From assembly GCA_964187785.1 (NCBI GenBank), contig OZ076409.1, forward strand, positions 77,438,001-77,502,000: a stretch of 64,000 nucleotides of DNA, given 5' to 3'. Both the position numbers and the translations under genes were made by a program. The notes below the pieces were generated by a model. The model did no database searches. It worked only from the letters and a program-made list of their open reading frames with translations, and was not told the origin of the DNA. Below are positions 13,278 through 44,204 of this stretch, one piece after another; position 1 is the stretch's first letter, and the number at the start of each line of letters is the position of its first letter. The stretch is from Amphiscolops sp. MND2022. Its lineage: Eukaryota.

Positions 13278-13300
13278 TTTTTTCTCGTTCTTTCTTTTAT

Positions 13301-13310
13301 GACTGCGCTA
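13301..13310 (-). promoter_or_regulatory. Degenerate primer-binding site (TAGCGCAGTC, TGGCG-type; tRNA-Ser-like by inference)
   Basis: Immediately internal to the 5' LTR; one change from a TGGCGCAGTC PBS. Confidence 0.6.
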
Positions 13311-18105: not shown

Positions 18106-21100
18106 TGTGTCTCACCGATAGCCCTACGTTTCTAATGGCGGACCAGGCCGCTCCATCAGCCAAAAAATGATTAAAAAAGGAAAAATTATTATTTCCGGAA
18201 GATTTGTGTCTAGCAATTAAAACACACAGGATGCGGGAAAACAAAAAACATGTGAAAGTGTTTACAAAATGCGGGGGAAATATTCATCCAAGATTCATGT
18301 ATGATTTTACAATTTTGAACTAAAATTTGAAGTCAATAATTTGAAGGAATGACTCATCGATTTCGAATAAAATTCCATTCAGAACATAACACCGCCTGTC
18401 TTGATTTCGCAGGGAAGAAATTAACAAGAGCGTTAAACACGCAAGCGCAATAAAATAAGGCACAGTAAAAGAAATGTAAGGTTAGGGAACAAAGTCATTT
18501 GAAATCATCATTGAAATTAGCATCAAACATTTTCTTCAATTTATGCACCGGTCGATTGTAGATTCCTGTTGCGGTTTTTACTTTTACGACTCTCACAAAC
18601 TTGTCTGTGCTGGTGTAGACAAGTTGGACTTTAGCCAATGGCCACTGTAGTGGGGGAACATTGTCATCAATTACAAAAACAATTTCACCAACTATCAAAT
18701 TGGAAGTTTCTAGTCTCCATTTCTTTCTTTCTTGGAGGGAGAGTACATATTCTTTGACCCATCTTTTCCAAAAATGAGAGACCATTTTCTGTATTTGTAT
18801 CCATCTTTTTGTGGGTGAATGTGTACTGTCAGGGTTTTTCAAATCATCGGTAGTTTGGCTCAAGGGTAGATTCTCCAACTTTCCACCCAAGCAGAAATGA
18901 GCAGGAGTTAGGAAAAACTTGTCATTTGGATCTTCTGATAATGGGCAGATTGGTCTTGGATTCAAAATCATTTCAATTTGACAAAGTAGAGTACATAGCT
19001 CTTCAAAGGACAGAACTTTGTTTCCCATAACTTTTCGGAGATGTATTTTTGCGCACTTGATTGCTGATTCCCATAGGCCACGAAAGTGAGGAGCTCTTGG
19101 TGAGATGAAAAACCACTTGATGTGCAAGCCTGCTGCTTCAGCCTGCAAGGAGTCACAGTGTTCATTCCTTAATATCTTTTGCAGGTGTGCTATTTCTTTC
19201 TCCGAACCAACAAAATTTTTCCCATTGTCACTATAAAGATTTTTAGGACAACCTCTGCGAGAAACGAATCTTCTAATGGCTGCAATACATGCTGCTGTAC
19301 TAAGATCAGAGACTAGTTCCAGGTGAACTGCTTTACTGGCAAAGCACACAAAAAGTGCTAGGTAGGATTTCTCATGAGAATTCAGAGATTTCCTACAAAG
19401 GAAAGACCAGCAAAGTCTAGGCCCACGTCCTCAAAGGCTTTTATAGGAGGGTCAACTCTTGTCTTTGGAAGATCTCCCATCAAGTGGAAAACTGGCCTCG
19501 AGTTGAAGCGATTACTATTGACACAATTCATTATCATTTTTCGAACCAAATTTCTACAACTGGGAATCCAGAAACGAGTTCTAATATGAGCAATTGTTTG
19601 ACTAGTCCCACCATGGAGTGTCAGCTGGTGAGAGTTCAATACAATTAGACGTGCGAGGTGACTGTCTTAAGGAATTAGTCTTTTAAACTTGCTTTCCTCG
19701 GGCCACTTTGCATGTACTAATCTATCTCCGACACAACGAATGCCATTGTCGAGAAACGGGTATAATTTGCAGATTTGACTCGTTGGCTTAACTTGTTGTG
19801 CAGTTTCTAGAGTTCGGATTTCTTCCGAATATCGTTTCTTTTGTTCTTGGTGAATCAAAATTATGATTGACTCTGTTAACTCTGGGGCAGTAATGTAACT
19901 TGGTAAAACAACCACGTTCTTTTTCAGTTTGTCAATAAAACGTCTAGCGTAAGCAAGAACTCGGAGGACTTTGTATAAAGAGTTAAACCTCGACAAATCC
20001 ATAACATCCTTTTTGGTATCCCTGTGAGCCACAGAGGTATGAATACTGGTAATTCCTGTTGTTAGAGTCAACTTTTTCAACTCTTCAGATGTTTCAACAA
20101 TTGACAATGATTTCGGAAATTCCCCTGTTATTAACCACTTCGGACCATTCCACCAAAGGTCATGTTGGTTCATTTCGTCAAGGTTAATTCCTCGAGATGC
20201 AGGATCCGCAGGATTCTCCTCGGAACACACATGATTCCAATTGAATTTGTTTTCACTTTGAATTTCACTAATACTGTTTGAAACAAAAGTTGACCAGCGA
20301 GATGGTTCTTTCGACAACCAACACAGAACTATTGTTGAATCAGTCCACGCGAAGGTTTTCTCAATAACAACTGGCGTTTGACCAATAGACTTGATGACAG
20401 ATTGATATAACCTAGTGCCTAGCAAAGCAGCACATAATTCTAATCTCGGAACAGATTGTGTTTTCACGGGGGCTACCTTGGTTTTGGCAACAAGCAGGGA
20501 TGACTTCCGCCTGTCATGAGAATCTGTGGCAACAATATAAATACAAGCGGCATAAGCCTTTTCTGATGCATCACAGAAGAGATGCAACTCAATCTTGTCC
20601 GAGAATCCATCAAGTAATACGAATCGTTGCAATTCCACATCCTTTAAAGAGATCAATTTCGTTCTCCACTCCAAATATTGGTCGGAAAGTTCGGAAGGGA
20701 GGTGATCATCCCATGAAATTTTTGCTTCCCAAGCCCTTTGCATTAACTGTTTCAAGAAAATGGTAACTGGTGACAACCAACCCAATAGGTCAAAAGTCTT
20801 TGAAATGTCACTAGCATTTGTTTTTTGGTCAAAACCTTTGCTTTAAAGTTTTCTTTTTCGATGTGGGAAACCTTAAAAACGAAGCGATCTTCGCTGTGTT
20901 GCCAAACAATACCGAGCGTTTTTATTGTATGGTCTTTGTCTAAAAACTCCAAGTTATCATTTGCTTCGCGATACTCGGGCGGAAGGTCTAAGATAATGCT
21001 GGATTCGTTGGAAGTCCACTTGCGGAGATCGAATCTTCCTCGTTTAGGAGTTTCTACTAATTGCTTTTGGAGTATTCGGACTTCATCGATCGAAGTGGCT

Positions 21101-21160
21101 CCAGTGAGAATGCCATCGACATAAAAATCTCTCAATATAGCTCTTTGAACCTCAGTGGAT
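18106..21160 (-). mobile_element. Truncated BEL/Pao copy (3' LTR 18106-18386, integrase, RNase H, end of RT) created by the duplication
   Basis: LTR TGTGTCTCACC...TTCAGAACA preceded by ATATT; LHLFCDASEKAYAA; SDNGKNF; private frameshift near 19405; ends at the junction. Confidence 0.95.
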
Positions 21161-22672
21161 TTTCTTGCAGGCCGATCTCCAGTTTATCTACCCAGTCCAG
21201 TCCCAGTAAAGGTTGTGTGTGTTCTCCTTCTCCGTGATTAGGACGGGTAGTGTTACTTTGGTTCTCTCAGTCTTGACTTCAACCATGGTTTCGCCTTTAA
21301 ATTTTATTGGATTTTTGTTTACGTCAACAAAACACTTTGAAGTCGTCTTGAAGTCTTTTGGAATAATAATTGATGGAATTATTGTCACTATAGAGCCGGT
21401 GTCAATGATGAATTCTATTGGTTTTCCCTCCACTAATGGGACAGCTTTGTGAAAATCCACACGATTTATGCCGTTGACGGATTGAATATGGTCCATTTCT
21501 GGCCAAGACTCTATGTTGCTGCCGGTATCTTCTTCGTGTATCCAGTTTACGGTCTTGGATCGGCAAACTTTCGCAAAAAGGCCTAACTTTATGTAATTAT
21601 TGCATTTAGCTTTCCGTGCCGGGCAAATGAGATCGGGTGTCCAATTGGCCTTCCCACAAAAATGACAATTTCGTTCGGTAGTTTTTTTCTGACCGGTAAA
21701 GGTAGCTTTTTCCTTTGTTACGGGTTTGGTGTATCGGACTTGTTCGTCCTCGGATGTACTTTCAGAGGAGTTTTTCCGTTGTCTCTTGAATTTGAATCGT
21801 TTGTCCCCGTACTTGCGATAGTAGGAGTCTAACTCTATGGTTTCCAGTATTAGCTGTAGCTTCAATGGGCCTTCTATAAACTTGTCACGGGCTTTCTTGT
21901 CGTTGATGGATGCTGCGAATTGGTAGGTGATAATATCTTCAGTTGTAATAGTGCTGGATTTGCAATGCCTTTCGATATCTATCAACCTTTTCCAGCATTC
22001 GTCTAGGGTCTCGCCGTCTTTTTGTTTGATATTGAAGAATTGGGCTCTGCTATAGAATACATTTCTAGTGTGTAGAAAGGTCTTTTTTAACAGTTTCAGC
22101 AATTCTTGTAAGCTGATGTCTATGAGTTTTTTCCTCATTGGCCCTCATAATCTCGTGTTTCGCTCTTGGGCCCAATGCCCCTAGGACGTCGCCTTTGATG
22201 TGATATGTTGTGTGTGGATCCATGGAGTCAGTTTCCTGTCCTATCAATTCTTCTAATTTCTTCTGATATGTCAGGTCGATATATTCTGAGATCTGTTCCC
22301 ACCACATTCTGGGGGTGATTTTTGATAGATCAGTCTCTCTGTCCGATAGAATCGGGATTTTTTATTTGTTCCTCTCAGTCCTTTCGACTGTTGTTTGGTT
22401 TGCCACCGTTGGGTCGGTTCCATAGTTATTATTCGTGCTTTCCATTTTTTTCTCGTTCTTTCTTTTATGACTGCGCTATGTTATAGACTCATAAAAAGAA
22501 TGGTTGTAGGGATGCTCGAGTTAAGAATGTTGTACTTCGATTACAACTAGTATCATCAAACTATAGCAATGTAAAAAGTAGCATCAACTGCATTAAGCGT
22601 AAGTAGTCTTTTATAGTTCGTGGGCAGGTACTGTACAGTCTAATTAAAGCTGTCTAGACTGTCACCTCAACA
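21158..22672 (-). mobile_element. Truncated Mag-like Gypsy copy (protease, gag, 5' LTR 22479-22672) created by the duplication
   Basis: Near-identical to 11989-13504; same ATAGC flank after the LTR; ORF 21188-22138. Confidence 0.95.
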
Positions 22673-22957
22673 ATAGCGTAAGATGCTACGATCTGAGAGT
22701 TCGGTTCTTGGAAAGATTCGTAGTTAAGGGTCAAGTACGTCATGTCAATGTAACCGTACATGGCACCCAAAATATGTAGGATGCTTTTCACGAAATTCTG
22801 CAATCGAAATTGGCCAATCTGACTTTGGGATGGATCCAATTTTATACATTTTTCTTTCCTTTCATCTAAATAACACAGTATCATTTACGATTTTCACTAT
22901 TGTTTGAATGGGCGATTTTTTTCAATGCCTTCCACAAAATTAGCCAATTATATCCAA

Positions 22958-23169
22958 TCAATTTTGAATGCATGCATGAATAACAGCATTACGTAACATG
23001 TGCGAAACAATATTTCAGCGGTTACTCTAGGAGAATTACTACTACTACTATAGCCTGTTTTTGGATCTTTTTCTCTCTTAATTCTCCTAGAGTAACCGCT
23101 GAAATTTTGTTTCGCCCATTTTACGTAATCAGTTCAATTGCTCTTATTCATGCATGCATTCAAGATTGA
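22958..23169. repeat. Foldback/hairpin, copy B, (CTA)4 loop
   Basis: Paralog of 13790-14004. Confidence 0.9.
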
Positions 23170-25570
23170 TGTATGCGCAAGTTTCTCTTTCTTCTTCGTT
23201 TCAAAAACATCCATATTTTTGATGAAATTCTCAACTTAAGATTATTCTACGAAGTTTTTCCAGAAAAAAATTAATAATTCCAACATGAAAAAATGAAATT
23301 ACTTTTACTAAAAGAAAAAACAATCAACCTGGAGTTGAGTCAAACTGGGCTTCTATGAACTCTTCAGTAGCAGCTAGCGCCATAATCAACAAAAGAATGG
23401 GTATTATACTCTTTAGCAATGTTTTCAAAACAATCCAGCGGAAAGAATATATTTGCCACAGATGACATTGCTTGCTAAGGATTCCAGTAGATTGAAGAGA
23501 AGAATTAGAATAAAAATTATAGTGGAAATACTGTTTGGTTCCTCGGAGTAGAGGACACAAATGGGAATAGAAAGAAAAACGATGCTCTGAAGACTGAATT
23601 CTTTCCAGTGATTTCTGTGCAAAAAGAGTATTTTTGGAACTCTAGGGCAGTATGTAGCAAGAGTAGTAAGAAGAAAACGACGGCTGCAATTATGAAGGTA
23701 ATATTCCATGGAACCTTAGCCGCAAGTTCTCCCAGGAATTCCATGCATAAATATTGCACTGTATATAACGTTATAAGCAAGAAATACAGCAGAAGCCCAC
23801 TAACAAGTAACAGCAATTTAAGCAGTCATTTTCCAATCCCCAAACAATTGATACAAGTGATACGGTACCAACAAAATTACGGTAACAAAAGGCTCATTTT
23901 AAATAGTTTTGTACTAACTTCGTGTTTTGATAGAAAATATTATCATTTTCACGTTTTCTCACGTTTCACGTAACATTCCTCAATGCGCACTGAATAATCA
24001 TAATTTCCGTGAAATTCGTCATGTTGGTCGCTGTTGACCTCCGATGGGAAAAAAGGTGACAACCGAAGGGTTCGTTACCCTAGGTTGTCAGCACCAGTTT
24101 CTTATCAGAATTTAGTCCGCAATTATTTAAACGACAAATATTGTGGTAGAGGGGAAGCTTCTAATGTTGGACGCTCCATCATTTTTGATCGGTCGCTATT
24201 ATTAAGAACACCTCGCGAACAAAAGGCGCATTTTTATTTAACAGCCAAAAAAGTGAGGAAAAAGTTCGAACGATTTTCCTCATTTGCAAAATGCGAGGCA
24301 CCTTAGGCAGTTATAAAGGCTTTCTTTTAAAAGTAGAAAAAAACCGCTTCAACTTGGTCCGCACAAGTGAAAGAAGTTGCAGAGAGGAAGTTTTTTGAGG
24401 AGGCTTCTTCTGTGCTATTCTTTTTCGTTAGGAGTTTTGAGCCATAATCAAGTAAAACTCTGGGTAATTTTTTGCAGCAAACCTTTGCAAAATTCTTAAC
24501 AAAAAAGCTTCGAGGCAAGATTTGTGTAATAACTCACGATTGAGAGTAGATATGCAGATAGACTAGTAAAAATGGATGCAGTAAAATTTGCTTTGATGCA
24601 GGCTCTGTGACGTCAAGCTCCGACAAATGTATGAGAACATCTGGTTTTGATACAGACCAACAGTGATCGCTATCCATTTCATTGTCCAACAGAGAGAAAT
24701 TCAATTTTATCTCCAATTCTGGATCCCTTCTACCAAGACCTGAAAATGGACAGGAAGGCAAGTTTTGGAAAACTTCGTTTTGCGCAAAACTAAGATATTT
24801 AGTAGCGCAATTGAATGCCCAGGTTGTCGTCTGGCCATGAACTTCATTCATAATTCAAGACTCACTATGATATTGACCATGTCATGGACCATGAATAAAA
24901 ATCTGTGAAGTACAGTTAACAACCCAAGAACATCCATGAGCATCCACAAAGATCCATGAACATTGAAAAATCTTGATGAATGATTTTTCATGAAATCAAT
25001 TCTTTATATTTCACCGATCTATGCAAATGGTTGACGCAAAACTGAGCTTCGAAAATTATCTTAGTAAACGCAAACAGAGTCAATGTTTGATCAGACTTTT
25101 CATCACTGGAGAAGAAGCTATTTCTCGTTGAAAAACTGTTGACTATTGATCTATTGTCTCTTCTCCACTTGAATATTTTATATACCGTTTGTCAACAGAG
25201 TTTAACAAAGCGGAACACTAACTTCAACATTGCGGTAGTGTCATTCCAAAAAGAAGCATTCGGGAACGTTAATTTCAACCCGAGACATTGAATTTCAACA
25301 ATTATACAAAAACAGAAAATAACGGAAGAATTTGTTTTGATTGCAGAAGCTCTTCTTCCACTATACATCTTGAAATATATGTCATTGAATTTTTGCACTA
25401 TTCCCGGAATTTTGCAGGGTCTCCAACAGTAGATTGGTCGTTTATAATTTTTCCCAACAATTCAAAACAGTACATTTCCAGACTTCCACCCTGAAGTTGT
25501 GGTTCCGGTAAGATAGTACAACTAAAAACTTCAAAAAAGACATTATTTTGTTCCATTGATGGCCTTAAGA

Positions 25571-26125
25571 GCGCTGTATCGGTATCCCATTTTTTGAAAG
25601 CTTACGATTTTGAAACACTTTCCGTAATTGAAAGAACCTTGGAAAATTTCAAAACAGACGAGTGCATACTCCGTTGATATACTTGCGTATACGGACAAAT
25701 TTTGACCACATTGGTTGGCGATCACTTGCGTAGCCTTTCTCATCTCAACGCGTGACGAATTTTGTGGGAAAAAAACATACCGAGTTTGTCCACATATCTC
25801 TTGTTTTACCAATAACGTTTGCACTCAAAATCCAACTTTGCGTGCTGCCAATGTTTCAGGGGTGTATCTGTGAGTTGGGGTGTAACAATTCAGTTTAACG
25901 GTGTACGCAATTGCGGTGTGTATATTCCCACAAACTTCGTCACGCATTGAGAGGAGAAAGGCTACGCAAGTGATCGCCACCCAATGTGGTCAAAATTTGT
26001 CCGTATACGCAGGTATATCAGCGGAGTATGGACTCATCTATTTTGAAATTTTTCAAGGTTCTTTCAACTATGAAACATTTTTCAAAATCGTACCTCTTTC
26101 AAATATTTGGTTACCAATACAGCAC
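25571..26125. repeat. Long imperfect inverted repeat, copy B
   Basis: Paralog of 16423-16977; ORF pair 25543-25824 - and 25901-26158 +. Confidence 0.85.
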
Positions 26126-26626
26126 ACATTCAATCATTGTCTGTGCGCCAAATCATAGGAATGTCCAGGATGCGTTTGATCTCATATCAGTTGAAAGGCT
26201 TCATAATTACCCCCCATTCATTAACACTATTGAGATGACATCAACGTGCAGGTTGCAAGAGAGATTGCAGGGAAACGAGATGTGTTTCTTACTATACCAC
26301 AATAACAACTTGTGGGTGGAAGTCTGAAATTTAACGTTTTGAAATGTTGAAGAAAATTATGGACAACTAATCGATGAACATTGACTCTGCAAAAAATTGG
26401 GAATGGTATAATTGTAATTTGAACAAATTTTTTCGTTAATTTATGTTTTTAATCATTTGTTGAATTTAGGTATCCTGTGTTGAAGTTTAACAAGTTCCAA
26501 AGTATTAAAACTGGAGTCCCACTTGGCGAATTCAACTGACAAAAGGTAGAATGAAATCAAGTCTGCTACGTTTTTTCAACAAACCATGCTATCAGAGTTA
26601 CTTGATGGCTGACAACAAAATGTGTA

Positions 26627-26990
26627 CTAGGTGAACCAAAAAAACGGAAGTTAGAAAAATTTTCGATTTCTCAAAGTTTCAAATAATGGTCAACAAAAGT
26701 TTCACAACATCTTTGAACGACTCGGATGCTGTCAATCATTCAAGTTGGCATCTTTACGTCGTAGCGAAAGAACTTTCACGCATTAAAAGTGTGAACGAAA
26801 CGACTGGTGAAGACGTCTAGACTATTTATGATGGTTCGAACCATCCTTAGCTGAAGATGCGATTACGTAACAGGAACTTCATTCTAAAAGACTGACAGAA
26901 AATTTGAAAGATTCTCGGTCTCTTGTTTACAAATAATACGATTTAGAAGAGGCAAAAGTTTTGTACGTTCCGTTTTTTTGGTTCACCTAG
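26627..26990. mobile_element. 364-bp Tc1/mariner-type MITE, copy B
   Basis: Same outer TIRs and TA flanks as 17479-17842. Confidence 0.85.
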
Positions 26991-27638
26991 TAAATGATTT
27001 TGAACAGTATTCAAAAATGTTTGTAAATCTGTAGGAAGACTCACGCTTTGAACTCAGTGAAAGGTATAATTTATACCAGCAGTCTGATTAAAATATAACT
27101 TTTGTATTCTCACGAATAAGATGCGTTCTAGAACTTTGAATTAAACATTGTAACTAAAACGTCGATCAAACGTAGCATCAAAGTCAAAATGATATAGCAG
27201 TTTTATATCTATAGTTTTGTTTGTAAATATAGACAGGTATACCTGTTTATATTTGTGTCTCACCGATAGCCCTACGTTTCTAATGGCGGACCAGGCCGCT
27301 CCATCAGCCAAAAAATGATTAAAAAAGGAAAAATTATTATTTCCGGAAGATTTGTGTCTAGCAATTAAAACACACAGGATGCGGGAAAACAAAAAACATG
27401 TGAAAGTGTTTACAAAATGCGGGGGAAATATTCATCCAAGATACATGTATGATTTTACAATTTTGAACTAAAATTTGAAGTCAATCGAAGGAATGACTCA
27501 TCGATTTCGAATAAAATTCCAATCACAACATAACGCCGCCTGCCATGATTTCGCAGGGAAGAAATTAACAAGAGCGTTAAACACGCAAGCGCAATAAAAT
27601 AAGGCACAGTAAAAGAAATGTAAGGTTAGGGAACAAAG

Positions 27639-30600
27639 TCATTTGAAATCATCATTGAAATTAGCATCAAACATTTTCTTCAATTTATGCACCGGTCGAT
27701 TGTAGATTCCTGTTGCGGTTTTTACTTTTACGACTCTCACAAACTTGTCTGTGCTGGTGTAGACAAGTTGGACTTTAGCCAATGGCCACTGTAGTGGGGG
27801 AACATTGTCATCAATTACAAAAACAATATCACCAACTTTCAAATTGGAAGTTTCTAGTCTCCATTTCTTTCTTTCTTGGAGGGAGAGTACATATTCTTTG
27901 ACCCATCTTTTCCAAAAATGAGAGACCATTTTCTGTATTTGTATCCATCTTTTTGTGGGTGAATGTGTACTGTCAGGGTTTTTCAAATCATCGGTAGTTT
28001 GGCTCAAGGGTAGATTCTCCAACTTTCCACCCAAGCAGAAATGAGCAGGAGTTAAGAAAAACTTGTCATTTGGATCTTCTGATAATGGGCAGATTGGTCT
28101 TGAATTCAAAATCATTTCAATTTGACCAAGTAGAGTACATAGTTCTTCAAAGGACAGAACTTTGTTTCCCATAACCATTCGGAGATGTGTCTTTGCACAC
28201 TTGATTGCTGATTCCCATGGGCCACCAAAGTGAGGAGCTCTTGGTGAGATGAAAAACCACTTGATGTGCAAGCCTGCTGCTTCAGCCTGCAAGGAGTCAC
28301 AGTGTTCATTCCTTAATATCTTTTGCAGGTCTGCTATTTCTTTCTCCGAACCAACAAAATTTTTCCCATTGTCACTGTAAAGATTTTTAGGACAACCTCT
28401 GTGAGAAACGAATCTTCTATTGGCTGCAATACATGCTGCTGTACTAAGATCAGAGACTAGTTCCAGGTGAACTTCTTTACTGGCAAAGCAAACAAAAAGT
28501 GCTAGGTAGGATTTCTCATGAGAATTCAGAGATTTCCTACAAAGGAAAGAACCAGCAAAGTCTAGGCCCACGTCCTCAAAGGCTTTTATAGGAGGGTCAA
28601 CTCTTGTCTTTGGAAGATCTCCCATCAAGGGGAAAACTGGCCTCGAGTTGAAGCGATTACTATTGACACAATTCATTATCATTTTTCGAACCAAATTTCT
28701 ACAACTGGGAATCCAGAAACGAGTTCTAATATGAGCAATTGTTTGACTAGTCCCACCATGGAGTGTCAGCTGGTGAGAGTTCAATACAATTAGACGTGCG
28801 AGGTGACTGTCTTAAGGAATTAGTCTTTTAAACTTGCTTTCCTCGGGCCACTTTGCATGTACTAATCTATCTCCGACACAACGAATGCCATTGTCGAGAA
28901 ACGGGTATAATTTGCAGATTTGACTCGTTGGCTTAACTTGTTGTGCAGTTTCTAGAGTTCGGATTTCTTCCGAATATCGTTTCTTTTGTTCTTGGTGAAT
29001 CAAAATTATGATTGACTCTGTTAACTCTGGGGCAGTAATGTAACTTGGTAAAACAACCACGTTCTTTTTCAGTTTGTCAATAAAACGTCTAGCGTAAGCA
29101 AGAACTCGGAGGACTTTGTATAAAGAGTTAAACCTCGACAAATCCATAACATCCTTTTTGGTATCCCTGTGAGCCACAGAGGTATGAATACTGGTAATTC
29201 CTGTTGTTAGAGTCAACTTTTTCAACTCTTCAGATGTTTCAACAATTGACAATGATTTCGGAAATTCCCCTGTTATTAACCACTTCGGACCATTCCACCA
29301 AAGGTCATGTTGGTTCATTTCGTCAGGGTTAATTCCTCGAGATGCAGGATCCGCAGGATTCTCCTCGGAACACACATGATTCCAATTGAATTTGTTTTCA
29401 CTTTGAATTTCACTAATACTGTTTGAAACAAAAGTTGACCAGCGAGATGGTTCTTTCGACAACCAACACAGAACTTTTGTTGAATCAGTCCACGCGAAGG
29501 TTTTCTCAATAACAACTGGCGTTCGACCAATAGACTTGATGACAGATTGATATAACCTAGTGCCTAGCAAAGCAGCACATAATTCTAATCTCGGAACAGA
29601 TTGTGTTTTCACGGGGGCTACCTTGGTTTTGGCAACAAGCAGGGATGACTTCCGCCTGTCATGAGAATCTGTGGCAACAATATAAATACAAGCGGCATAA
29701 GCCTTTTCTGATGCATCACAGAAGAGATGCAACTCAATCTTGTCCGAGAATCCATCAAGTAATACGAATCGTTGCAATTCCACATCCTTTAAAGAGATCA
29801 ATTTCGTTCTCCACTCCAAATATTGGTCGGAAAATTCGGAAGGGAGGTGATCATCCCATGAAATTTTTGCTTCCCAAGCCCTTTGCATTAACTGTTTCAA
29901 GAAAATGGTAACTGGTGACAACCAACCCAATGGGTCAAAAGTCTTTGAAATGTAACTAGCATTTGTTTTTTGGTCAAAACCTTTGCTTTAAAGTTTTCTT
30001 TTTCGATGTGGAAAATCTTAAAAACGAAGCGATCTTCGCTGTGTTGCCAAACAATACTGAGCGTTTTTATTGTATGGTCTTTGTCTAAAAACTCCAAGTT
30101 ATCATTTGCTTCGCGATACTCGGGCGGAAGGTCTAAGATAATGCTGGATTCGTTGGAAGTCTACTTGCGGAGATCGAATCTTCCTCGTTTAGGAGTTTCT
30201 ACTAATTGCTTTTGGAGTATTCGAGCTTCATCGATCGAAGTGGCTCCAGTGAGAATGCCATCAACATAAAAATCTCTCAATATAGCTCTTTGAACCTCAG
30301 TGGATACTTCCGACAAATTGGCACATTCTCGCAAAGCTCGGATTGAATGATACGATGAGGAAGCTACGCCATAAGTAACTCGGTTCATGCGTAACGTTTC
30401 AACCGGACCACCAGCTGTAAATCTCCAGAGGATCCGATGAAAGTCTCGATCGGCTTTATCCAGCTCAACTTGCCGATACATCTTCGCTACGTCAGCTGAT
30501 AAAGCAATCTTGAAAAAACGGAATCGCACGAGAATATTGAACAAGCATCTTGAAGTTTGGGACCAACTAGCAAACAATCATTAAGTGAAAAACCAGTTGT

Positions 30601-32919
30601 CGTTTTAGCACTAGCGTCAAATACAACACGCAATTTGGTGGTTGTACTATCTTCTTTCAGCACGCAATGATGAAGCAAGAAGCAGTTTGGAGAATTATCA
30701 ATCTCCCAGGGTTGGACCTTCTCCAAGTGTCCAAGGTCAATGAATTCTTGAATGAAAGCTGAATACTTTCGAGAAAGGTCGACATTATGGCGCAAAGTGT
30801 ATTCAAGACGAATGAAACGCTTCATTGCGTTCGCTTTCGAAAGTCCTAAATTATGGGGTCCATCTTTAAATGGCATCTGTACTACGAAACGGCCGTGTTC
30901 ATTGCGTTTTGTGGTGCTATCGAAGTGCTCTCCACAACGACGCTCATCCAAAGTTAAGTGTCTAGTTTCGGGGACACTTTCTATTTCCCAAAATTTCAAA
31001 AGGAGTTGGTCAGAGTCACAATTCGGAGTGGTAGTCATGTGGGATACAACGTTGTTGCTGCCAGACGAATACACAGGACCAGACACAATCCAACCGAATA
31101 CGGAATCCCGAATGCACAAGCCGTTGTCCTTTATTTTATTAACAAGCATAATGTCTTCTATAACATCTGCACCTAGCAAGTGATCAACCTTATTAGGAAC
31201 GTTGAAAGTGGGATCAGCTAAGTTAAGATTGTTCACATGGCGCATGGTCGAAACGTCAATTTCTTTACCAGGAATGGTATTGGAGATTTTTGGTATGAGA
31301 TGAAGATTAACTTCGATAGTATCATTCAACTTCACAGGCAATAAGCCTCGAGTTTTTTGGAAATGGGAAGAACCCATTGTAGAAACATTTATTTGGCTGC
31401 GCTGAGTTGGCAGCATGAGCGCCTTTGCAACATCTTCTGTTACGAAACTGGCTTGTGAACCGGAATCTAAGAGAGCCCGCAGCTTGATCGCGTCTCCCGA
31501 TGAATTCCGAATTGTTAAAAGAGATGTAGAAAGAAAAACAGTATTTATTTCATTGTCAGCACTAATGTGCCATGTGGTGAATTGCTTTGTAGACACCATT
31601 TTGTTGGAAGTTGAATTCATACTTGAATAAGTCTTTGTAGAGGTGCGTTGATCAGGGAGCTGTTTCTGAGGTCGATGAAGCAAGGTGTGATGTTTCATTT
31701 TGCACTCACGACAAGTGAACTTAGATGGGCACGCATAAGACTAGTGTCCTGATTGGAAGCAGTTGAAACAGAGTTTTTTGTCTTTTATGAACTTATGTCT
31801 ATCAGCAAGACACATTCCTTTGAATTGTGAACAAGCGTAAAGGCGATGATCCTCTTGGCAAGATTCACACGATGAGCCTTGAACAGCATAATTCTGAACC
31901 CTTTTGGTTAGAGTTGGGTTCCCTTGGTTGCAGAGAGATGTCACACTTGATTGCGGTGTGACCTTTGAGCCACCCGATTCGAGTGCACGACTTCTTGTGT
32001 CAAGGAATTTCGACAATAATTCCCAAGACAAAACGTCAGTGCCAGGATTATCCAGCTGCCACTGCTTACACGACTCTGGATCCATCTTCTCCGTCAGAAC
32101 AAAAATTAAGATAGCATTCCAGTGCTCTACTGGTTGACCAAGTTCAACGAGTGCTCGTAAACGCTCATTGGTGAGTTCCAGAAGTTTTCTCAATCCGAGA
32201 GCGGATTCAGTTTTCAAAACTGGCTGCGACCAAATTGCTTGCAAATAAGCTTGAATGATGCTCCTTTTATTTTCTTATCGATCTTTCATCAATGCAAAGG
32301 CAATATTGTAGTTTGCGTCAGTTATCGAGATTGAACTAATGAGTCTCGCTGCTTCACCCTTCACACAGGCTTTCAAATAGTTCAGCTTCTCTGAATTGGA
32401 GAGATGGGTATTAGAATCGACGGAGGCCTTGAATAGGTCAAAGAAACTCATCCAGTCAGTGTATGATCCAGTGAATGTTGGTAACTGAAGTTTAGGCAAC
32501 TTCAATCTACTCGATGTGACAGAGCTTGATGGAGAAGGGTCTGTTGAAGACTCACGCGGAGGTCTATCGCGTTCTTTTTTGTAATTCTCAATCAATGCAG
32601 ACAACCTAGCGATGGTAACACTAGCAGAAACATGGAACTCCGTTTGCTGTTCCAGTTCATTGGCTAAATCATCTTCATGTTCTATCAATAATTCAATTTC
32701 CGCATCAAACTTATGAATCATTGCAATTCTATCTTGTAATGTCTTCGGCAAAGCTTCACCTTGAAACAATTTAGTTGAAGAGTCAATAGCAGTGACCGTA
32801 AATTCATCAACTTTCTGTTACAATCTAGTGAAAGCACCTTTGTGACCACCTCGGATGCGAGTAAGATTTCTATCTTCAGTGGCTGGTTGTACGGAAGCAC
32901 AACTTTCAGTTACAGACAT
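27639..32919 (-). pseudogene. BEL/Pao gag-pol (gag, three Cys/His knuckles, PR, RT, RNase H, IN)
   Basis: ATG at 32919; KLPKLQLPTFTGSYTDWMSFFDLF; CESCQEDH, CFNCFQSGH, CRECKMKHHTLLH; RALLDSGSQ; ADVAKMYRQV; FYVDG (YVDD decayed); LFCDASEKAYAA; VGLDFAG; SDNGKNF. Multiple frameshifts and stops. Confidence 0.95.
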
Positions 32920-33061
32920 TTTTCAGATTACAATACAACACTATCACGAACAATAAACAAAGTAAATAATCCTCAAAGTCGAGTCGGATAGGCCACCGAT
33001 GAGCTAATCGTCCAGCGACCACACCGAACTCAACCCATAGGATGAAAAAAAACTTCTAAGG

Positions 33062-33754
33062 TTAAGTTGACTTCAAACTCTGCTCAAAAAGCTTCTTCAA
33101 TCTTCTTTTCCTTTGAGAAGGTTTCTTGCTGGGACTCATTGTATTTTGGGATAAAACTTTAAGATTGTTTCGGTGCTCCAAAACAATGAACAAAGACTTT
33201 AATTCAATATCCGCTACTGGATGAAGTCGGGAATATTCATTCAAAAGAGGAATATCATTCTGTTTTCTACGAGAAAGAAGATTTTCTGTGACTCGAAAAA
33301 CAATGAAATATTGATCACGTAGATCATCAAATGCATGGGGTGCACCAATACGTTCACAAAAGACTAAGGCTGTTAAACGAGATTTATATTTTAACAATTC
33401 AGTTGCTAATTCTTCAGGGGTAAGAGCTGTATTGTTATTTGATTTATGGGGAGTCAAGGTGTTGTTCAGAATGTCATGCCAAATAACTAATTGATTCGTA
33501 TTTTTACGAATACCATGATCCAGTAGAAAAGACAATTTGACCGTATCACTTTGAACATAGGGGTTCAAGCTCAAAGAAGGAATGGCTGTGATAAAGTTTC
33601 CAAGGGTATTTCGGTTATCAAAATCCAAGTTTTGTAAAGCTCGTTTTAGTGAACTTGCACTGATAACATTTATCATGAGTGAAGTTTTCGGGTTGCTAGG
33701 GGTAAGCTGAAGGTCGATCGGGGACTTCGTGAAAATGTGACTATCTGCATCCAA
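33062..33754 (-). CDS. Extra ORF between PBS and gag of the BEL element (230 codons from TTG; 204 aa from ATG at 33676), putative degenerate SGNH-hydrolase-like fold
   Basis: Uninterrupted frame with non-repetitive composition. Motif order VISASSLKR / AIPSLSL / VIWHDILNN / LVFCER / SRLHP parallels SGNH blocks I, II, III and V. The fold call is by eye. Confidence 0.65.
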   Translation of the reverse strand: MDADSHIFTKSPIDLQLTPSNPKTSLMINVISASSLKRALQNLDFDNRNTLGNFITAIPSLSLNPYVQSDTVKLSFLLDHGIRKNTNQLVIWHDILNNTLTPHKSNNNTALTPEELATELLKYKSRLTALVFCERIGAPHAFDDLRDQYFIVFRVTENLLSRRKQNDIPLLNEYSRLHPVADIELKSLFIVLEHRNNLKVLSQNTMSPSKKPSQRKRRLKKLFEQSLKST

Positions 33755-34057
33755 AATTTTAGGAAGTAATAATAAAGGACAAACTTTCAGGGGGGTCCAC
33801 AGTTTATTTTCACCGTCGAAAAAACGAAATGCCTTTAAGTTGTAAAATGGAAAGAGCTAACCGGGGAATGACGATCAATCGTGGATGAAGCTGACACTAG
33901 CAGGTTGAAGGGTTTGCAAGTTAGTTACTTGGTAATTAGTTACTTGACAATCGAGTGTTACTTTTGTAAGGACAACTTTTAGTACAAAGTTCCGAAAAAA
34001 GTAGTTTCTTTTCGAAAGTTCAAAGTTCGTATGTCCGGGGTCTATGGCGGACCAAAA

Positions 34058-34338
34058 TGTGTCTCACCGATAGCCCTACTTTTCTAATGGCGGACCAGGC
34101 CACTCCATCAGCCAAAAAATGATTATAAAAGGAAAAATAATTATTTCCGGAAGATTTGTGTCTAGCAATTGAAACACACAGGATGCGGGAAAACAAAAAA
34201 CATGTGAAAGTATTTACAAAATGCGGGGGAAATATTCATCCAAGATACATGTATGATTTTACATTTTTGAACTATAATTTGAAGTCAATTATTTGAAGGA
34301 ATGACTCATCGATTTCAAATGAAATTCCTTTCAGAACA
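34058..34338 (-). repeat. 5' LTR of BEL/Pao element (281 bp)
   Basis: Matches 18106-18386 and 27254-27530. Confidence 0.95.
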
Positions 34339-34577
34339 ATATTTATTTGTCATAGTGGTAAATTTTTTACCAATGCCGAGTCCGAAATTTTCTGATGTGA
34401 TATCAGTTTTTTTCTCAGATCTTGTTCCAGTGGTTCTTTCAGTAATTTTAGATGTTATTGTAGTGGTTCTTCGTGTAATTTTAGATGTTTTTTTAATGTT
34501 TTCGAAATTTTCAGTTGTCATTACGGTGGTTTCCTTCGTTTTTCATATGATTCAATCCGATTTCATGATTACAATTA

Positions 34578-34758
34578 TATAATTCCATGCGATTCCTTGC
34601 ATGGAACCATATGATTCCATGCGATTCCATGCATGGAACCATATAATTCCATACGATTCGATGCATGGAACCATATGATTCCATGCGATTCCATGCATGG
34701 AAACGGCATGAAATTATCGTATGGAACCATATGGTTCCATGCATGGAATCGCATGGAA
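34578..34758. repeat. 32-bp palindromic minisatellite (~5.5 units) with a terminal inversion
   Basis: Unit TATGATTCCATGCGATTCCATGCATGGAACCA at 34578, 34610, 34642 and 34674. Orientation flips at the palindrome ATGGAACCATATGGTTCCAT (34721-34740). Confidence 0.9.
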
Positions 34759-36891: not shown

Positions 36892-37638
36892 GATAATGGC
36901 ACCCTATACCCAACAAAATTTTCGAAGTTTGACGATTTTCTGAAAATTTCGTTCAAAAGTGACGTGGCCCTCAAACATGAGTTCACGAGGTACCAGTCCC
37001 GCAAAAAATCATAAAGAGCGTGGACAAGCAAAGCCCGCGAGGCGGAAAAAGTGACACGACGGTAAAAGAAGCGTGTACAACGTCACAGAATCGAGAAATC
37101 GTAAGCCCATGCGCTAATTGCCACGGTGCCCATCGTAAATCAGACGGAACCAGCATGTCCGAGTGATTGCAGCGCCCGAACCCAGGGTTGTGTCGAACCC
37201 GAGAATCAATGCCATGCCACCCTGAGTGATTTTAGATTCGCCAGACTGGATTTTCATGCCTTTTTGATGTGTTCATTGATTTGTTTGATGAATTCTTTAC
37301 TCGAGAGCTACCTTTGTTAATGTTAATGTCATTTACGATGGATTTCCATCTGGACCATTTAATTCAGTTCTATGCAGCTTAACCCTATTTCTACAGGCTA
37401 TTACAGTGACTATTACACAGTGGATACGAGGAAAGAGCGTAATTCATTTGACTAGTAGCAGTTACAGACCGGAACTGGTCAGAAAGCATCCTTAGAGACG
37501 GTTCTCCCTTCTCGGGACCGGCATTCCCTAGGACAAAATGAACTGGAATCATGGCGATCAGTCCCGGATCATTACCCATGGCTTCAGTTCCTCCACCCTG
37601 CCTGCGTAGCGAACAAACGCTAAGCGCTTTTCGTTACA
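36892..37638 (+). repeat. 5' LTR of giant Gypsy (~747 bp)
   Basis: Colinear with 54999-55694, plus an extra segment near 37000-37040 and small duplications. Confidence 0.9.
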
Positions 37639-40263
37639 TAGGAACATCATTTTTTGGCGACCACAGAGGGATCGTCTTTGGGAAGCTTTCCTTCATGGTT
37701 TTAAAATATCTGACACTCCGGTGTTCAGCACCAAGACAGTTTCGACTCTGAAGGAGAAGCCAGAGTTTTGCTCCTATTTTAAACGATTGCATGTATTCTT
37801 GGCCACTAGATCGAAGAAAACCCAGAAATCCCGAAGAAAATGCGTTTTCAGGTTCGAAACTGGCATTTTGAGGTTAGAAAAACCGTAAATGCATGTGTTT
37901 CAATGTCATGTTATGTCAGCCCATCAGCGGGTATTTGTTTTACAGGTAATGGCCTTCGTAGCACGTGGCTACGTGTGTTAACTGGTATTTGCAGCTATTT
38001 TCAGTTTTTCGAGCCATGTATGACAGGTACCGATGAGCGACAATCCATACTCCACCAGGGCGAATGGGATGCGAAATGGAGTGTCTGGGTTCGTTGATTC
38101 CCATTTCTCGTGGAGACGTCCGCGAGGGGTGAAATTTAGTGAACAGAGAGAACTAATCCTAACAAGCCTAATGGTCCAAACCGCAAGTTTCTGGCTGGTC
38201 TGGACATGGAGAAATTGCGTGGCGAAGATGCACCCCCCTGGACCAGTGAAGTCGCCTAGATGGATCATGGTTCGCGAAAATTTTGAAATTGCACCTTTCT
38301 TCATGGGGAATCGTCGTTGCAGGTCAGTGACTCTTTTTTACAATGTAACGTCACCCAGTGAAACGCTTTTGAGCGAAGAAAACAGATATTTTTGTAAAAA
38401 AAGACGAATTTTCGTGTTTTTTGTGCATTTTCTTGGTTGGAGCCTAGGCACTCCGTAAATCCAAATTAGCACTGCCAGTATGGTGGCAAAAGTAGCCTCG
38501 AACCTCGAGAGAGCTGAGAAAACTAATGCTCAATGGTTCTCGTAACCCTTTTAGGTGAAAGAGTGGAAATATGCAGTAAAAAAGCGCGCAAATTGGGAAA
38601 AAGGGTGGAAAGCACCCTAAAATCACTATGGCACCTAGGTGTAGAACCTGGGGCACTGTTGTAAAGAAGTTTCATGAATGAATCACAACCCCAGGGTACT
38701 GGAAATAGCTTTTGCTGATCGATTTACTGGTGTAGAGACCAGAAAAAAGTGAAATTCCTGTAATTTTGGCTGTTTTTGACCCGGGCGGAGAATAGTATTA
38801 AAAGCCCGATTAACCAAACCTCTAATCAACCCCAAGAGCCTAGGCGCTCTAGATTTTTGTTTTTGCAATAAAAATAACGCATTGTGGTGAAAACCGCGTG
38901 CAAAAATTCCAATTCAGTGCTGAGAAAAGTGGAAAAAACGCACTGAATTTGATCGAATTTCCACGAAACCGGACTGTCTGATTGCCAGGGTTGGGTCATA
39001 GAATCCCAAACCCTAGCTAAAGCGTGATTACATTTTCATAACCACCACTAAAATAAACCCTTGTACCGAAAATTTGGTGGGTATAGCTCTCACCAAAGTT
39101 GAGAAAAACTCTCTAACGTTTCGACCTAAAATAGTACCGAAATAACCGAAAAAAGCCGAAATTGTAGAGCCGACGGTGTCCTACACCGAACGGGTACTGC
39201 CAATCGAAAGTTGGTGATACTGCTACGACCCGTGGATCAACACGTTAACCCCATTTACCCTGCCATAACGTTTGTAGTGTCGACCTTCTTCGCCGATTTG
39301 TGGAAAAAGTGTCGAAAAAGACTTCAGTGTTTTTTCTAAAGTGATGTCCATACCTACCCGAAGTCCTCCGCAAACCCAAGCGCTGCAATTGGACTATCCT
39401 AACGGCATTGTAGGTACCAACTGGCAGCTTGTGCCAAGTTTTGTGTCGATCGATTCGATAGTCATCGAGAAATAGCCTGAGAACGTACTGTCCAAAAAAG
39501 GGTACAAAAAGGACGTTTTTTCAAAATTTTTTGGAAAGCCCCGGATACCTTAGTCGGAGAGTGAGAACAAATTGCCGCTCTCTGACATAACTGGCACAGG
39601 TTGGCACGCAGCTAGCAAAAAAACCAGACCGCTGACTGTATCCAGTGTTCAGAAATTGTGTAATTAGATCACATTTTGACCCCTATTGATACATAGGAGT
39701 ACCGCACGTCTGTGCTCAGGGAAAACTGTGTACAAGCGTCGGAGCCCAAATCGGTGCTCGATTCTGTGTACCTACGTGTGTGTAGGATCGTCTGGCCAAT
39801 TTTGAGTCAACTCCGACCACTAGGTGACGGACACGGGCCACTTGTGTTATTTTTGACACTGTTCGAGGAAAGTCAAAAATTGTCGTAAACCCTTCCTGAC
39901 CGTTTCATAGATAGTTTAACCCCGACCTGAGTTCGTTTTCCGGTCGTGTGTGTAAAAACCTACTACGTTTGCGATTTTGAGCCCGCTACGGCCCTTGGAA
40001 GCATTTTCGACCTTCGCGAGGCATTCCGTAGTTGAAAATTGCTTAAGTCAACACCGAGACGACTGGAGGCCTAACGTAGTCTGATACACTTCAGTGGCCT
40101 CTGGGAACGGATTGGGTGACCTCAGGACACCTCATAGTCAGGTTGGACGCTCGTCACACCAGCAACGCTTCGAGGGATAGGCACGGACGAACGGCAGTAC
40201 GGCCCAGTAACTCGAAACTGGGGATACTGGTGCATCATCCTGTGACGTATCTTAGATCAACAC

Positions 40264-42600
40264 GTGGATCATAATGTTTGGGCGGGTGTAGCAACCGTAG
40301 TCCGACTGTTCACGCGTAGCACGGAGGAAGGTAGCGAACCAAATTCGTCTGACGCTACCGATCCGAGCGAACTGCAAGAGATAAGCTCGACCCAACGTGA
40401 CAGCTCAGATACTATAAGTCAGGTGAGTCTGAGAGAATGGCCACCTACGAAGTCATTATCGACTGGTTCCTCCTTTTCAGAAGCAATGAGTGACTGTGTT
40501 ACTGCCGATCAGCAACGGCGAGAAGAGCAGAATGCTATGGCCTTAAACACACCCCTATCGGAAGAGCTTATCCGCACAGGACAATGGATCCAAGACAACA
40601 GAGGCGAGTTGACATCGCCTCAAACGGCTGGATTGTGGCCCAACTCCAACCAAACAGCAGTGGAGGTGACCCCTGTGCGCGCTGGGTGCTCAGGACACCC
40701 AAGAACAACGACAGCCCAGCTAGTAAAGATACCGATGCAATCTTGGAAGGCATGACTTATGTCGGTGGGATGAACTATGCAAAGTATCGTCTGGAGGCTT
40801 GTCGAGCGAAAGCCTCCGGCAGGCAAAATACGCGTCCCCCAACATTGTATGTACAAGATGAACTAACTCATGACGGTACCGCGTCCACTACTTCATCACG
40901 AAGGTCCTATCGGGCTGTCGAGGAAGCCGCTGCCGCACGGAGTGCAATGTTGCAAGCGGAAGCTGAAGCCCAACGAGCCCTAGCACGTCTGGCCGACACT
41001 CGTGCCGAATGCAATGAACAGCACAAGGTCATGACTGCAGAATTGGAAGCCCTGCAGGACTCCGTAAAAGGTAGCCTGAGGAGCGCAACCCAGCAGACCA
41101 CAGTGCAAGCTGCGAAAGTGGACGCCTGGGCTATCGTCTGGAGGAGATGAAGGACTTATTTCTCCAGCGCGAACTCCGCGTGGAAGCACGACTGGCGGAA
41201 CTCAGTGACCAGATACGTACTCAAAGTGGAGCTGTATCTCACACAAGAACTCCTGAGGTAGAGCAAACCGAATTTGCCGAACCTATTGAGTCCACGAGTA
41301 AGATGGTGCCTATGCGCAATCCCAACCCGTCAACAACACTAAAAACAGGCCCAAAACGCAGCCCAAAGCAGTCATACCGCCACCGATAAACATGAGAGCT
41401 ACAAAAGTGCGCGTGTGCACGCCCAACCCACTCAGTGATGTACCAATGCCACCGATGACGTCGCTGACCCGAACCCGGGATCAGGGAGTAGACCCAATGC
41501 CAATCACATCGTCGACCTTTGACCTGACCGACACCAGAGCAACTGCTGGCTCACGCGCTAGCAGCACAGAGGATGAAGCCTACGCTAACGCCAGGATGAG
41601 AACTGTTGGGACTATTTCAATGTTCTTGACCGCGAGCGAAGGAATGCTCAAAGGCAAGCCTTGCGCCAGCAGTACTCGCAAGAAAGATAACGCGAATGGT
41701 GAACTATCCGTGCAAGCCACTAGAGGCAGTCAAGACAATTCGCCAGCCCCTAGTGAGGGAGCGGAAGTGATATCCCCAGAGCAGCTGCGATTCACAGCCG
41801 CCATTTCAAAGGGAATGTCCAAGGAACTGGCCCCTCTGCTGGCTGGACGTGACCAAACGCAAGCTAAGCCTAGCGTCTATAAAGGATCCAAGGAAGGTTC
41901 CATTGATGGTTGGATCATTGTGATGCGACGTTATATACAGCGTACGCAAGCCAAGGCAACTCCTGATGATAAAGCCTGGAGCATTATCGGACACCTGGAA
42001 GGTGATGCTCGCAATTACATCATCAATAAAGCCGAGTCTGAAAGGGATACCCCCGATAAAGTATTCGAATTGCTAGCTAGTCGATTTGGGACTGGAGGCA
42101 ACCGCATGCAAGTGCGCCAGGCCTTCACCACCCGGCAGCAATCCGATAGAGAAGATTGGATGCAGTATTTGGACGCACTGGAGGGGCTTCGAAGCCAAGG
42201 CTTTCCCGAAGAGCCCGTTACAACCAAACGTTACGAGATCCTCCAACGCTTCATTGAGGGCATTCGTGATCCCGTCTTACAATCTATGCATCCGAGACGA
42301 CTGTCAGCGAACCTCCCACAGTAGAATCTTGCGATTTACGACCCGACAATTGCAGCGTACTAGACCCAAGTCTGTACCGTATGACCCCAGGTATGCCATG
42401 AGATCAAGGCCTCATCCCTTTGCACCATTACCACCCAACAAGATGGTGTTTCCTCAAAGGGTTCTACCACCCCTCCCGCTAATAACGCCCCAACAAATCC
42501 GGCGGCAGCACCACCTGTCGCACGCCCTCCACTAGGCGCTTGTTTCAACTGTGGTCAGACTGGCTACTTCGCTCGAGATTGCCCCAATCGCGACCAGGCT
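40264..42600 (+). pseudogene. Giant Gypsy gag (long N-terminal extension with an Ala/Glu coiled coil, capsid-like core, zinc knuckle)
   Basis: KPSVYKGSKEGSIDGWIIVMRRY...GHLEGDARNY...LASRFG...RQQSDRED; CFNCGQTGYFARDCP at 42541-42585. Frameshifted across ORFs 40264, 40584, 41147, 41392 and 42086. Confidence 0.88.
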
Positions 42601-42654
42601 CGCAAACCTGCAGCTGCGCCAGAACCAGAAGGAGTAAAAATAATTGCTGAAGAC

Positions 42655-44085
42655 GTGACCGATGGAATTGTGGATAACTATCCTGGAATTCGCCATGGCG
42701 CTCACTGTCGCAAATTCAACCATGTTGACTCACCGTGCACTGGAAATCTTGTGATTCCAAACGAAAAAGCCAATCGCTGGGCAGAGGTAGAGTCGGCAGG
42801 GGTCGCTGCCCAACCAGTGCCACTAGAGGATGACCGTGTGCTAATGCTACACCCAGAAGAAACACCCGCGTTCTACACCCCACTGACTATCACCTGCGGT
42901 ACAAAGCAAGTCCAAACCTGCCTAGAACCAACCACGTTCGACCCTCAGGGACGAACGTTGATCTCTATTCACCTGATGTTGACTGCAGAACAATTGCGTC
43001 GACCAACATTAACGTTAGCCAAACTTTGGGTTGAACTACAAGCCCTGTACAAACGCGTGGAGATACCCCGCCCCAAAGAGTGGTATACCCCAGGGGATTC
43101 CGACACTCTCACAACCTATTCTCCCGTGCCTATCTGCGCCACTATGGCGAGAGTAGATGTGATGTTTGAAGCCTGCGTAGTGGTGGACGACTTTCCTCCT
43201 GGAATCTGCTTGGGCGCGCAGGAACTCAAGTGTTACAATATAGATCATCAAGAACCTACTGGTGAGGCACGGATAGACGAGCTCGCCTCACTCGTAGTCT
43301 CCTTTGTTGTGCCCCAGGCGGCACCAATCCCTCTGCGAGGACCCGTTGACACAGGCTCTGGCGTATCTATCCTAACCTTTTGAGCTTTCAACCGTATAGC
43401 CGCTCAAACAGGCACTGTACTGAAACCGTACCAAATTGACTTGTATGCCGCCAACGGCTGGACACTCAAAACCTTTGGGTTGGCAGAACAAATCCGCTTC
43501 CAGTTAGGAGGCTACGAACTTGAAACCAACTTCGCCGTGGAGGGTGATGCCATGGGCGTGGAGGATTTTCTGCTAGGACGTAACTTCCTCCGAACCTACC
43601 AGGTGCTCGTGGATCTAACCTCCATGAAGATTGTGGTCCGCGCGCCAGTGAAACCTGTTTGGCATCATGCACATACACAGGTAGGTGTTGCTTCCGTAGC
43701 CACTCCCGTCGCTTTAGACAGCGATTTGGTTCTACAGCCATTCGAACGAACGGTGGTCAAAGCCAAATTGGTCACCAATGATCTTGAACCGTTGATATTC
43801 CAAAATGTGATAATAAATGCGGCAATAGCTGACATATCGCTGCAAAACATTGTGTTTTCAGAGGACAGCGTTGCCACTGTCAGTGAAGCAGACCATGTTT
43901 TTGTCAGCATGCTAAACTTGACCAGTAACCCACAACGGATACCAAGGGGAACCCAACTGGCAACGTGGTTCCCGTGTCATTGGTATATCGGGCCATCCCA
44001 CAACAGTCTACACCTAAACCCACCCAACGAACTCAGGTCGATAATGACCAATTTGCGTTTGTTAACAAAATTTATGAAGAGATGA
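42655..44085 (+). pseudogene. Degenerate protease-like repeat, intact-motif aspartic protease, and dUTPase-like beta segment
   Basis: First unit ITCGTKQVQTCLE...FEACVVVDD.PPGICLGAQEL; second unit VDTGSGVSIL...F.V......DFLLGRNFL; then LVLQPFERTVVKAKL...VSMLNLTSNPQRIPRGTQLA. Stop at 43381. Confidence 0.75.
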
Positions 44086-44204
44086 ATTACGATACTAATT
44101 CACAATAAACTTCTTCTTTTGAATTCGAGTTTTTGTCCTCAACAGACCCCACCGAGGAAGGTCTTTCAGAATGCGAGGTACGTGAGCGTACGGATCCCTA
44201 ACTC

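Follow-up and report, generated by a model that had tools for sequence, protein, structure and literature searches.

The minus strand of the window (the whole stretch of 64,000 nt that was analysed) harbors an LTR retrotransposon spanning positions 34338 to 27254, the features of which are collected in Table 1. It is a BEL/Pao insertion with intact ends. Indeed, its paired direct LTRs with TG...CA termini are flanked by a short AATAT target-site duplication, and its coding region exhibits the order gag, protease, RT, RNase H and integrase together with BEL-specific Pfam domains, namely DUF1759 (E-value 4e-16), a Cys array, DUF1758/aspartic protease (6e-4), RT (RVT_1, 0.03), Peptidase_A17 (3e-47), an integrase part (Integrase_H2C2/rve matches) and DUF5641 (1e-31). 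The LTR size, the domain order and the DUF1759, DUF1758, Peptidase_A17 and DUF5641 domains are those of canonical BEL/Pao elements, which are known from metazoan genomes, as described in the available part of PMC3118150. In this copy, gag and protease share one frame, and gag-pol is interrupted by five in-frame stops (near 32820, 32277, 31743, 30163 and 28814) and two frame changes (near 30490-30577 and 29900-29987), with at least seven breaks in 5281 nt. The 11-mer of the PBS-like site is repeated exactly within the LTR (34087-34097), 43 nt upstream; no tRNA gene was found in the 64-kb window.

Table 1. Features of the BEL/Pao element and of its extra ORF (positions of the window)
Feature	Position	Strand	Evidence or remark
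5' target-site duplication copy, AATAT	34339..34343	-	matches 3' copy
5' LTR, 281 bp, TG...CA	34058..34338	-	93.6% identical to 3' LTR
PBS-like site starting TGG	34044..34054	-	3 nt past 5' LTR
5' leader	33677..34043	-	stretch 33856-33677 open in frame with the extra ORF
Extra ORF, 204 aa (P0002)	33062..33676	-	SGNH-fold domain (residues 1-174) and basic tail
Ser8, block-I nucleophile position after strand 1	33653..33655	-	Ser in 91/97 rows with a residue
W66-H67-D68-x-x-N71-N72 motif after strand 3	33461..33481	-	block-III equivalent by position
His152, block-V position before last core helix	33221..33223	-	His in 95/99
Lys/Arg-rich C-terminal stretch, residues 184-195, ARM- or NLS-like	33092..33127	-	at least 8 K/R per 20-residue window in 87/101
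Predicted long RNA hairpin in the spacer between ORF and gag	32969..33043	-	z -2.06, 5/200 shuffles; best of three stretches folded
gag-pol, BEL/Pao type	27639..32919	-	Pfam domains, Cys array
PPT-like purine-rich tract	27531..27545	-	adjoins 3' LTR; direct reading of the sequence
3' LTR, 277 bp, TG...CA	27254..27530	-	93.6% identical to 5' LTR
3' target-site duplication copy, AATAT	27249..27253	-	matches 5' copy
Second copy of the BEL 3' part (3' LTR to RT)	18106..21160	-	within the 9.15-kb tandem duplication

The surroundings are rich in repeats. A 9.15-kb tandem duplication (11989-21160 and 21158-30305, 98.4% identical) has doubled the 3' portion of the BEL element along with a portion of a second Gypsy-like remnant; the duplicated BEL part does not contain the extra ORF. 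The remnant (7677-13499, minus strand) contains RT, integrase and gag/protease pieces, and its repeats of about 190 bp lie at 7677-7869, 13311-13499 and 22479-22672. Two small MITE-like elements with long terminal inverted repeats (arms of about 200 bp and of 51-90 bp) each occur twice through the duplication (16425-16975 and 25573-26123; 13789-14005 and 22957-23170). The window also carries a tandem array (1-2824, unit of about 1075 bp, copies about 90% identical) and, just outside the 5' LTR, a 32-bp minisatellite with internal palindromes (34544-34758). On the plus strand, a Ty3/Gypsy-like element of 18.6 kb (37035-55694; LTRs 37035-37638 and 55103-55694, 94% identical) has, downstream of its integrase, about 6 kb of long open frames without a Pfam match (47752-49350, 50793-53060 and 53274-54149). 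A stretch of this neighbouring element that looked SGNH-like by eye did not match the profile of the protein family described below, and its single-sequence model was of too low quality for a judgement.

Our analysis shows that the extra ORF is a real protein-coding gene inside the BEL/Pao insertion, whereas the available part of PMC3118150 describes gag and pol, and rarely env, and mentions no ORF ahead of gag. As the initial annotation had stated, the frame is separate and lies inside the LTRs, after the PBS-like TGG (34054) and before the gag ATG (32919). The frame from 33856 to 33062 (minus strand) runs for 264 codons without a stop, and its first Met, at 33676, gives a product of 204 aa which contains all five motifs quoted in that annotation, in the quoted order; 143 nt separate its stop from the gag ATG. 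The upper limit first assigned to the ORF, 33754, is merely a TTG codon. We place the start at Met 33676 because 90 of 96 aligned relatives have a Met 4-9 residues ahead of the block-I Ser. The open in-frame part of the leader (33856-33677) is not conserved among distant relatives and, since these start at the position of Met 33676, the hydrophobic N-terminal extension called as a signal peptide in P0003, P0011, P0019 and P0021 was rejected as such and regarded as translated leader. Between the LTR and Met 33676 there is a single ATG (33750); it opens an out-of-frame uORF of 25 codons, the stop of which overlaps the start of the extra ORF. Three other copies have a protein that differs at this codon, which suggests that this ATG is particular to the copy analysed here. 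When the 1139-nt internal leader was shuffled preserving dinucleotides, none of 3000 shuffles gave either an open frame of 264 codons (maximum 208) or a Met-started ORF of 204 codons (maximum 177).

The leader and the spacer around the ORF are shared with other copies. Indeed, the read-throughs of P0003, P0011, P0019 and P0021 match the window leader from 33805, and that of P0025 matches the spacer down to 32903, past the gag ATG. A nested insertion of the ORF was considered and rejected, as no bracketing repeats were found at the locus, neither terminal repeats nor a target duplication around the ORF.

The ORF product is a member of a large family that lacks annotation and consists of stand-alone proteins about 200 aa long. 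The 204-aa protein had no match in Pfam (E<=10) or NCBIfam and none better than E 0.8 in a phmmer search of the PDB, where the family profile likewise found no sequence-level match to any solved esterase. No SGNH-clan family was present among the 25 Pfam families listed of the 68 matched by 101 members at E<=1; the recurrent weak matches to TPR_ZFYVE26 (11/101) and KaiA_N (8/101) were below curated cut-offs among the matches listed. ESM Atlas gave a low recognition score and no usable match for P0002 or P0171 (first hits 0.85; alpha/beta matches of low TM only, to a model of low confidence). Phage genomes yielded no tblastn match, a viral fold library gave as best match an SGNH-domain phage protein (E 4e-3, none at 1e-3), and a scan of prokaryotic genome contigs returned 13 pattern matches, none of which was confirmed. 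A word-indexed search found 23 close relatives, 61-93% identical and all from ENA, the best of which stands for 79 member sequences; exhaustive phmmer recovered 484 clusters (50% identity level) at E<=1e-3 and 222 at 1e-10. The 186 relatives gathered, including the best 150 of the 484 clusters, fall into 33 with at least 60% identity and 153 that are more distant. Of the former, four cover 90% of the protein, one of these four having an internal deletion; of the latter, 108 are 185-235 aa long. Fewer than 40 residues lie outside the domain on either side in 176 of the 186, and no fused form of 511-2000 aa was found among 8000 candidates, which is weak evidence. The alignment used below, A2, holds 101 proteins (the query and 100 relatives selected as near full length), with a median pairwise identity of 31%.

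The SGNH fold that had been suggested from the motifs is supported by fold prediction and by three structure comparisons against solved structures. The predicted model is a flavodoxin-like alpha/beta/alpha fold with five central strands, whose best matches, among the 50 listed, are acetyl-esterases and acyltransferases. On the basis of this model, the protein very probably adopts an SGNH fold in which Ser8 follows strand 1 and His152 precedes the last core helix, and to which a Lys/Arg tail is added; the block assignments rest on order, spacing and secondary structure, not on superposed coordinates. Ser8 and His152 are among the nine near-invariant columns of A2 and occur together in 86 of the 101 proteins. 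The block-III region, whose register is assigned by position, reads WHDxxNN and not GxND (W 98/101, H 97/101, D 93/100, N71 84/101, N72 94/101); His77 (91/101), Glu158 (88/101) and Cys107 (66/101) are further conserved columns. Position 34, block II by position, is Gly in 86/101; the window protein and those closest to it have Ser instead (11/101), and Ser34 of this subfamily is found also in the nearest outgroup, P0027. The GDS motif is absent, its Asp position being Ala in 90/97 and Asp in none, and so is the triad Asp of DxxH (three positions before His152, Asp 0/100, Glu 4).

The retention of Ser and His and the loss of the DxxH Asp are thus as initially proposed. Across the family, the block-II Gly and a block-III Asn are kept as well (S, G, N and H all together in 62/101). 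Since Gly and Asn are kept and Asp-less Ser-His SGNH enzymes are active (available part of PMC9487903), the fold may be less degenerate than was thought. According to the same source, CE2 enzymes rely on a Ser-His dyad and Ser occupies block II in SpOatA, so that the missing triad Asp is not proof of inactivity. The fold matches include both CE2 esterases and the catalytic domains of OatA; these are bacterial carbohydrate enzymes, about 10% identical to our protein, and the likeness shows only that such an active site can work (PMC9487903, in its available part).

The family is strongly basic. Its pI exceeds 9.5 in 91 of 101 members, and 87 have at least eight K/R within a 20-residue window; the median net charge is +14 for the domain and +10 for the tail, versus +2 and +8 in the window protein. 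No transmembrane-like stretch occurs in 100 of the 101 members, nor is a signal peptide or membrane anchor conserved in the family.

Constraint was assessed over 51 conserved and 99 variable columns defined from the 95 other alignment rows. P0003 and P0027 differ at 12/51 conserved versus 67/99 variable columns (p 3e-7), and P0003 and P0029 at 14/51 versus 75/93 (p 7e-10); as far as the sequences go, these comparisons show that the family is under protein-level constraint. The differences of 14 close copies pooled against P0003 are instead even (86/616 conserved versus 145/969 variable, p 0.61). Judged from such substitutions, the pattern is the one shown by a gene that active elements need and that decays once a copy has been inserted. 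Purifying selection on the window copy was rejected: compared with P0003 it differs at 7/51 conserved and 3/99 variable columns, so that the p of 0.03, one of six tests, points in the opposite direction, and a frame of 612 nt would stay open with P of about 0.44 at the break density of gag-pol (at least 7 breaks/5281 nt). The open frame in this copy is therefore not evidence of selection, and the caveat to this effect in the initial annotation holds. The window copy appears to be a dead insertion drifting neutrally, and nothing suggests that the host uses it.

SGNH domains have been published in CR1, RTEX and Penelope-like elements (PMC3905857). Like the non-LTR ORF1p esterases (CR1/L2 ZfL2-1, RTEX, Neptune; PMC3905857), the protein described here is a strongly basic SGNH fold with a separate basic motif, encoded at the 5' end of a retroelement RNA. 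In the available part of that paper, the ZfL2-1 esterase has a pI of 10.8 and a low turnover and binds anionic liposomes regardless of its catalytic residues; the domain alone does not bind RNA, a separate arginine-rich motif being linked to RNA binding. The LINE SGNH domain is presented there as an enzyme of weak activity, and the ORF1p carrying it was not required in a cell assay. The same portion of the paper describes H191 as transposon-specific, the transposon-specific His/Ser pair being H191 and S228. The spacing His67-x3-Asn71 equals that of H191-x3-N195 in ZfL2-1, with the His four residues before the block-III Asn, which hints at a common origin, and Cys107 may stand for S228. On the other hand, in non-LTR ORF1p the SGNH domain lies behind a coiled coil and replaces Gag (PMC3905857), whereas here it forms an ORF of its own next to a normal Gag; the former has a full Ser-His-Asp triad and the latter no Asp; the basic motif is here at the C-terminus, and the protein is far more divergent from PAF-AH and TAP. 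The ZfL2-1 esterase structure is absent among the 50 fold matches listed, but its crystal is domain-swapped, which makes this absence uninformative either way.

A close precedent within LTR retrotransposons comes from bdelloids. The available part of PMC5408684 reports a GDSL ORF3 downstream of pol in Vesta and GDSL ORFs in Athena/Terminon elements, so that SGNH proteins are shared across retroelement classes, as here. In Vesta, too, an LTR retrotransposon has captured an SGNH ORF that is separate and specific to its family, and ORF3 has no coiled coil or transmembrane segment. It differs in being downstream of pol in a non-BEL lineage (Juno, Vesta, TelKA and Mag are listed there), whereas our ORF is upstream of gag in BEL/Pao, and in being recognised by HHpred with its invariant residues intact, whereas ours is without the Asp residues; the two are set apart by position and by published description. 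The Oskar OSK domain (PDB 5a4a), as described in the available part of PMC7250577, is likewise a divergent animal SGNH-like fold with a non-canonical active site; OSK is part of a germ-line gene of the host and is described as non-catalytic, whereas the present family is element-borne and keeps Ser and His. A Helitron-borne SGNH gene figures in the title of a reference cited in PMC7599744. By the membership tests applied, the protein has an SGNH fold but is not a canonical GDSL lipase, a LINE ORF1p esterase or a Vesta ORF3. The idea of an SGNH fold captured by an LTR element was thus borne out for the fold and for Ser/His, while the capture itself had already been published for Vesta (available part of PMC5408684). 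What is new here is the BEL/Pao host, the position ahead of gag and the distinct family; our literature search found no earlier description of a pre-gag SGNH ORF in BEL/Pao, and a Repbase or Dfam entry is possible.

How might such a protein be made and what might it do? In the RNA of the element, the extra ORF probably comes first among the cistrons. Because ten ATGs lie between Met 33676 and gag, gag would need splicing, internal entry or reinitiation; the hairpin predicted in the spacer, for which Rfam gave no match, is a candidate signal for gag translation, which the folding suggests weakly. The product would be an element-encoded accessory protein, with an SGNH pocket whose Ser-His dyad, in place of a triad, might make it a slow acyl-esterase or an acyl-chain binder. 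Its basic surface would bind anionic phospholipids and its basic tail the RNA of the element, and the Gag/RNA particle would thereby be brought to membranes, where it could be assembled or transported; such a role has been proposed for the ZfL2-1 ORF1p esterase. By analogy with the latter, we give about an even chance to the product being a slow Ser-His acyl-esterase or acyl-chain binder that tethers the element RNA or particle to membranes via its basic surface and tail.

Different readings have to be weighed against this one. The SGNH scaffold might be catalytically dead and the product, similarly to Oskar OSK, an RNA-binding or nuclear/nucleolar-targeting protein that packages or chaperones RNA or carries the particle into the nucleus, with no membrane role; we consider this possible, if rather doubtful, as near-invariant Ser8 and His152 would be needless for a pure RNA binder and the OSK match ranks 32nd among the 50 listed, below active esterases. 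The joint presence of S, G, N and H in 62 of 101 proteins, the near-invariant H67, D68 and H77 and the common E158, which could supply an acid or a substrate site, and the acetyl-esterases and acyltransferases heading the listed fold matches would all fit a true enzyme acting in trans on a host target, i.e., a deacetylase or deacylase of proteins, lipids or glycans by which host silencing would be weakened or a compartment remodelled to the advantage of the element, and a first cistron would permit its expression independently of Gag. However, there is no canonical triad, a shared fold shows no function, the substrate is only putative and no signal peptide or membrane anchor is conserved, and we regard such a role as unlikely.

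It might also be argued that the ORF is a passenger, that is, its own cassette or a small mobile unit that landed in the BEL leader and is useless to the element, its conservation coming from other contexts. This would agree with the even differences of the close copies and with relatives joined to unlike neighbours (a PHD finger in P0107, an upstream Gag Cys array in P0094). Even decay, however, is what any gene of a retrotransposon should show in dead copies, and the ORF is not bracketed by terminal repeats or a target duplication. The 33 clusters with at least 60% identity, one of which stands for 79 member sequences, show that it was amplified together with the BEL family, and constraint is seen on the branch to the nearest subfamilies; we hold this explanation to be quite improbable. 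As for a chance open frame in an AT-rich leader, the lack of a Pfam, NCBIfam or PDB sequence match and the low ESM Atlas score might speak for it, but the shuffles, the 484 related clusters and the confident fold refute it, leaving it practically no credit.

For the distant relatives, glimpses of the context come only from chance fusions, P0094 and P0107. In P0094, a BEL-like Gag Cys array (29% identical to that of the window over 45 aa, E 6e-6) lies upstream of, and joined to, a relative 86% identical to P0042, an order that might stem from a deletion, from nesting or from a different placement of the ORF. In P0107, the family member runs into a PHD finger (E 3e-9) about 50 codons later, followed by a stretch that we take to be LINE ORF1-like. 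The end of P0158 resembles, by eye, the start of a PHD finger, with no Pfam match; in P0107 and P0158, the same cassette may precede a structural ORF of another kind. One can speculate, in a wider and decidedly tentative reading, that a large accessory family of hundreds of subfamilies would serve as the first cistron before the structural gene in many BEL/Pao families and perhaps before PHD-type LINE ORF1s, being swapped between retroelement classes, and that its Asp-less Ser-His SGNH pocket and basic tail would constitute an env-independent factor for membrane targeting or cell-to-cell transfer.

The capture of SGNH proteins by retroelements is an established theme: SGNH esterases recur in LINEs, Penelope-like and bdelloid LTR elements. 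What a specialist may find noteworthy is the BEL/Pao host, the place ahead of gag, the size of the hidden family and the consistent loss of both aspartates. Where a small, soluble-looking SGNH protein stands alone next to a normal Gag, the SGNH function is uncoupled from RNP scaffolding, and the loss of both aspartates with Ser and His kept across hundreds of divergent subfamilies offers a direct test of what retroelements select for, be it catalysis, lipid capture or charge. The family is invisible to Pfam, and repeat annotation would enter the extra ORF as an untranslated leader. Moreover, the upstream gene raises the question of how the gag behind it is translated; if the family does act as a first cistron in many BEL/Pao families, as in the wider reading above, this would also imply a non-scanning route to Gag translation.
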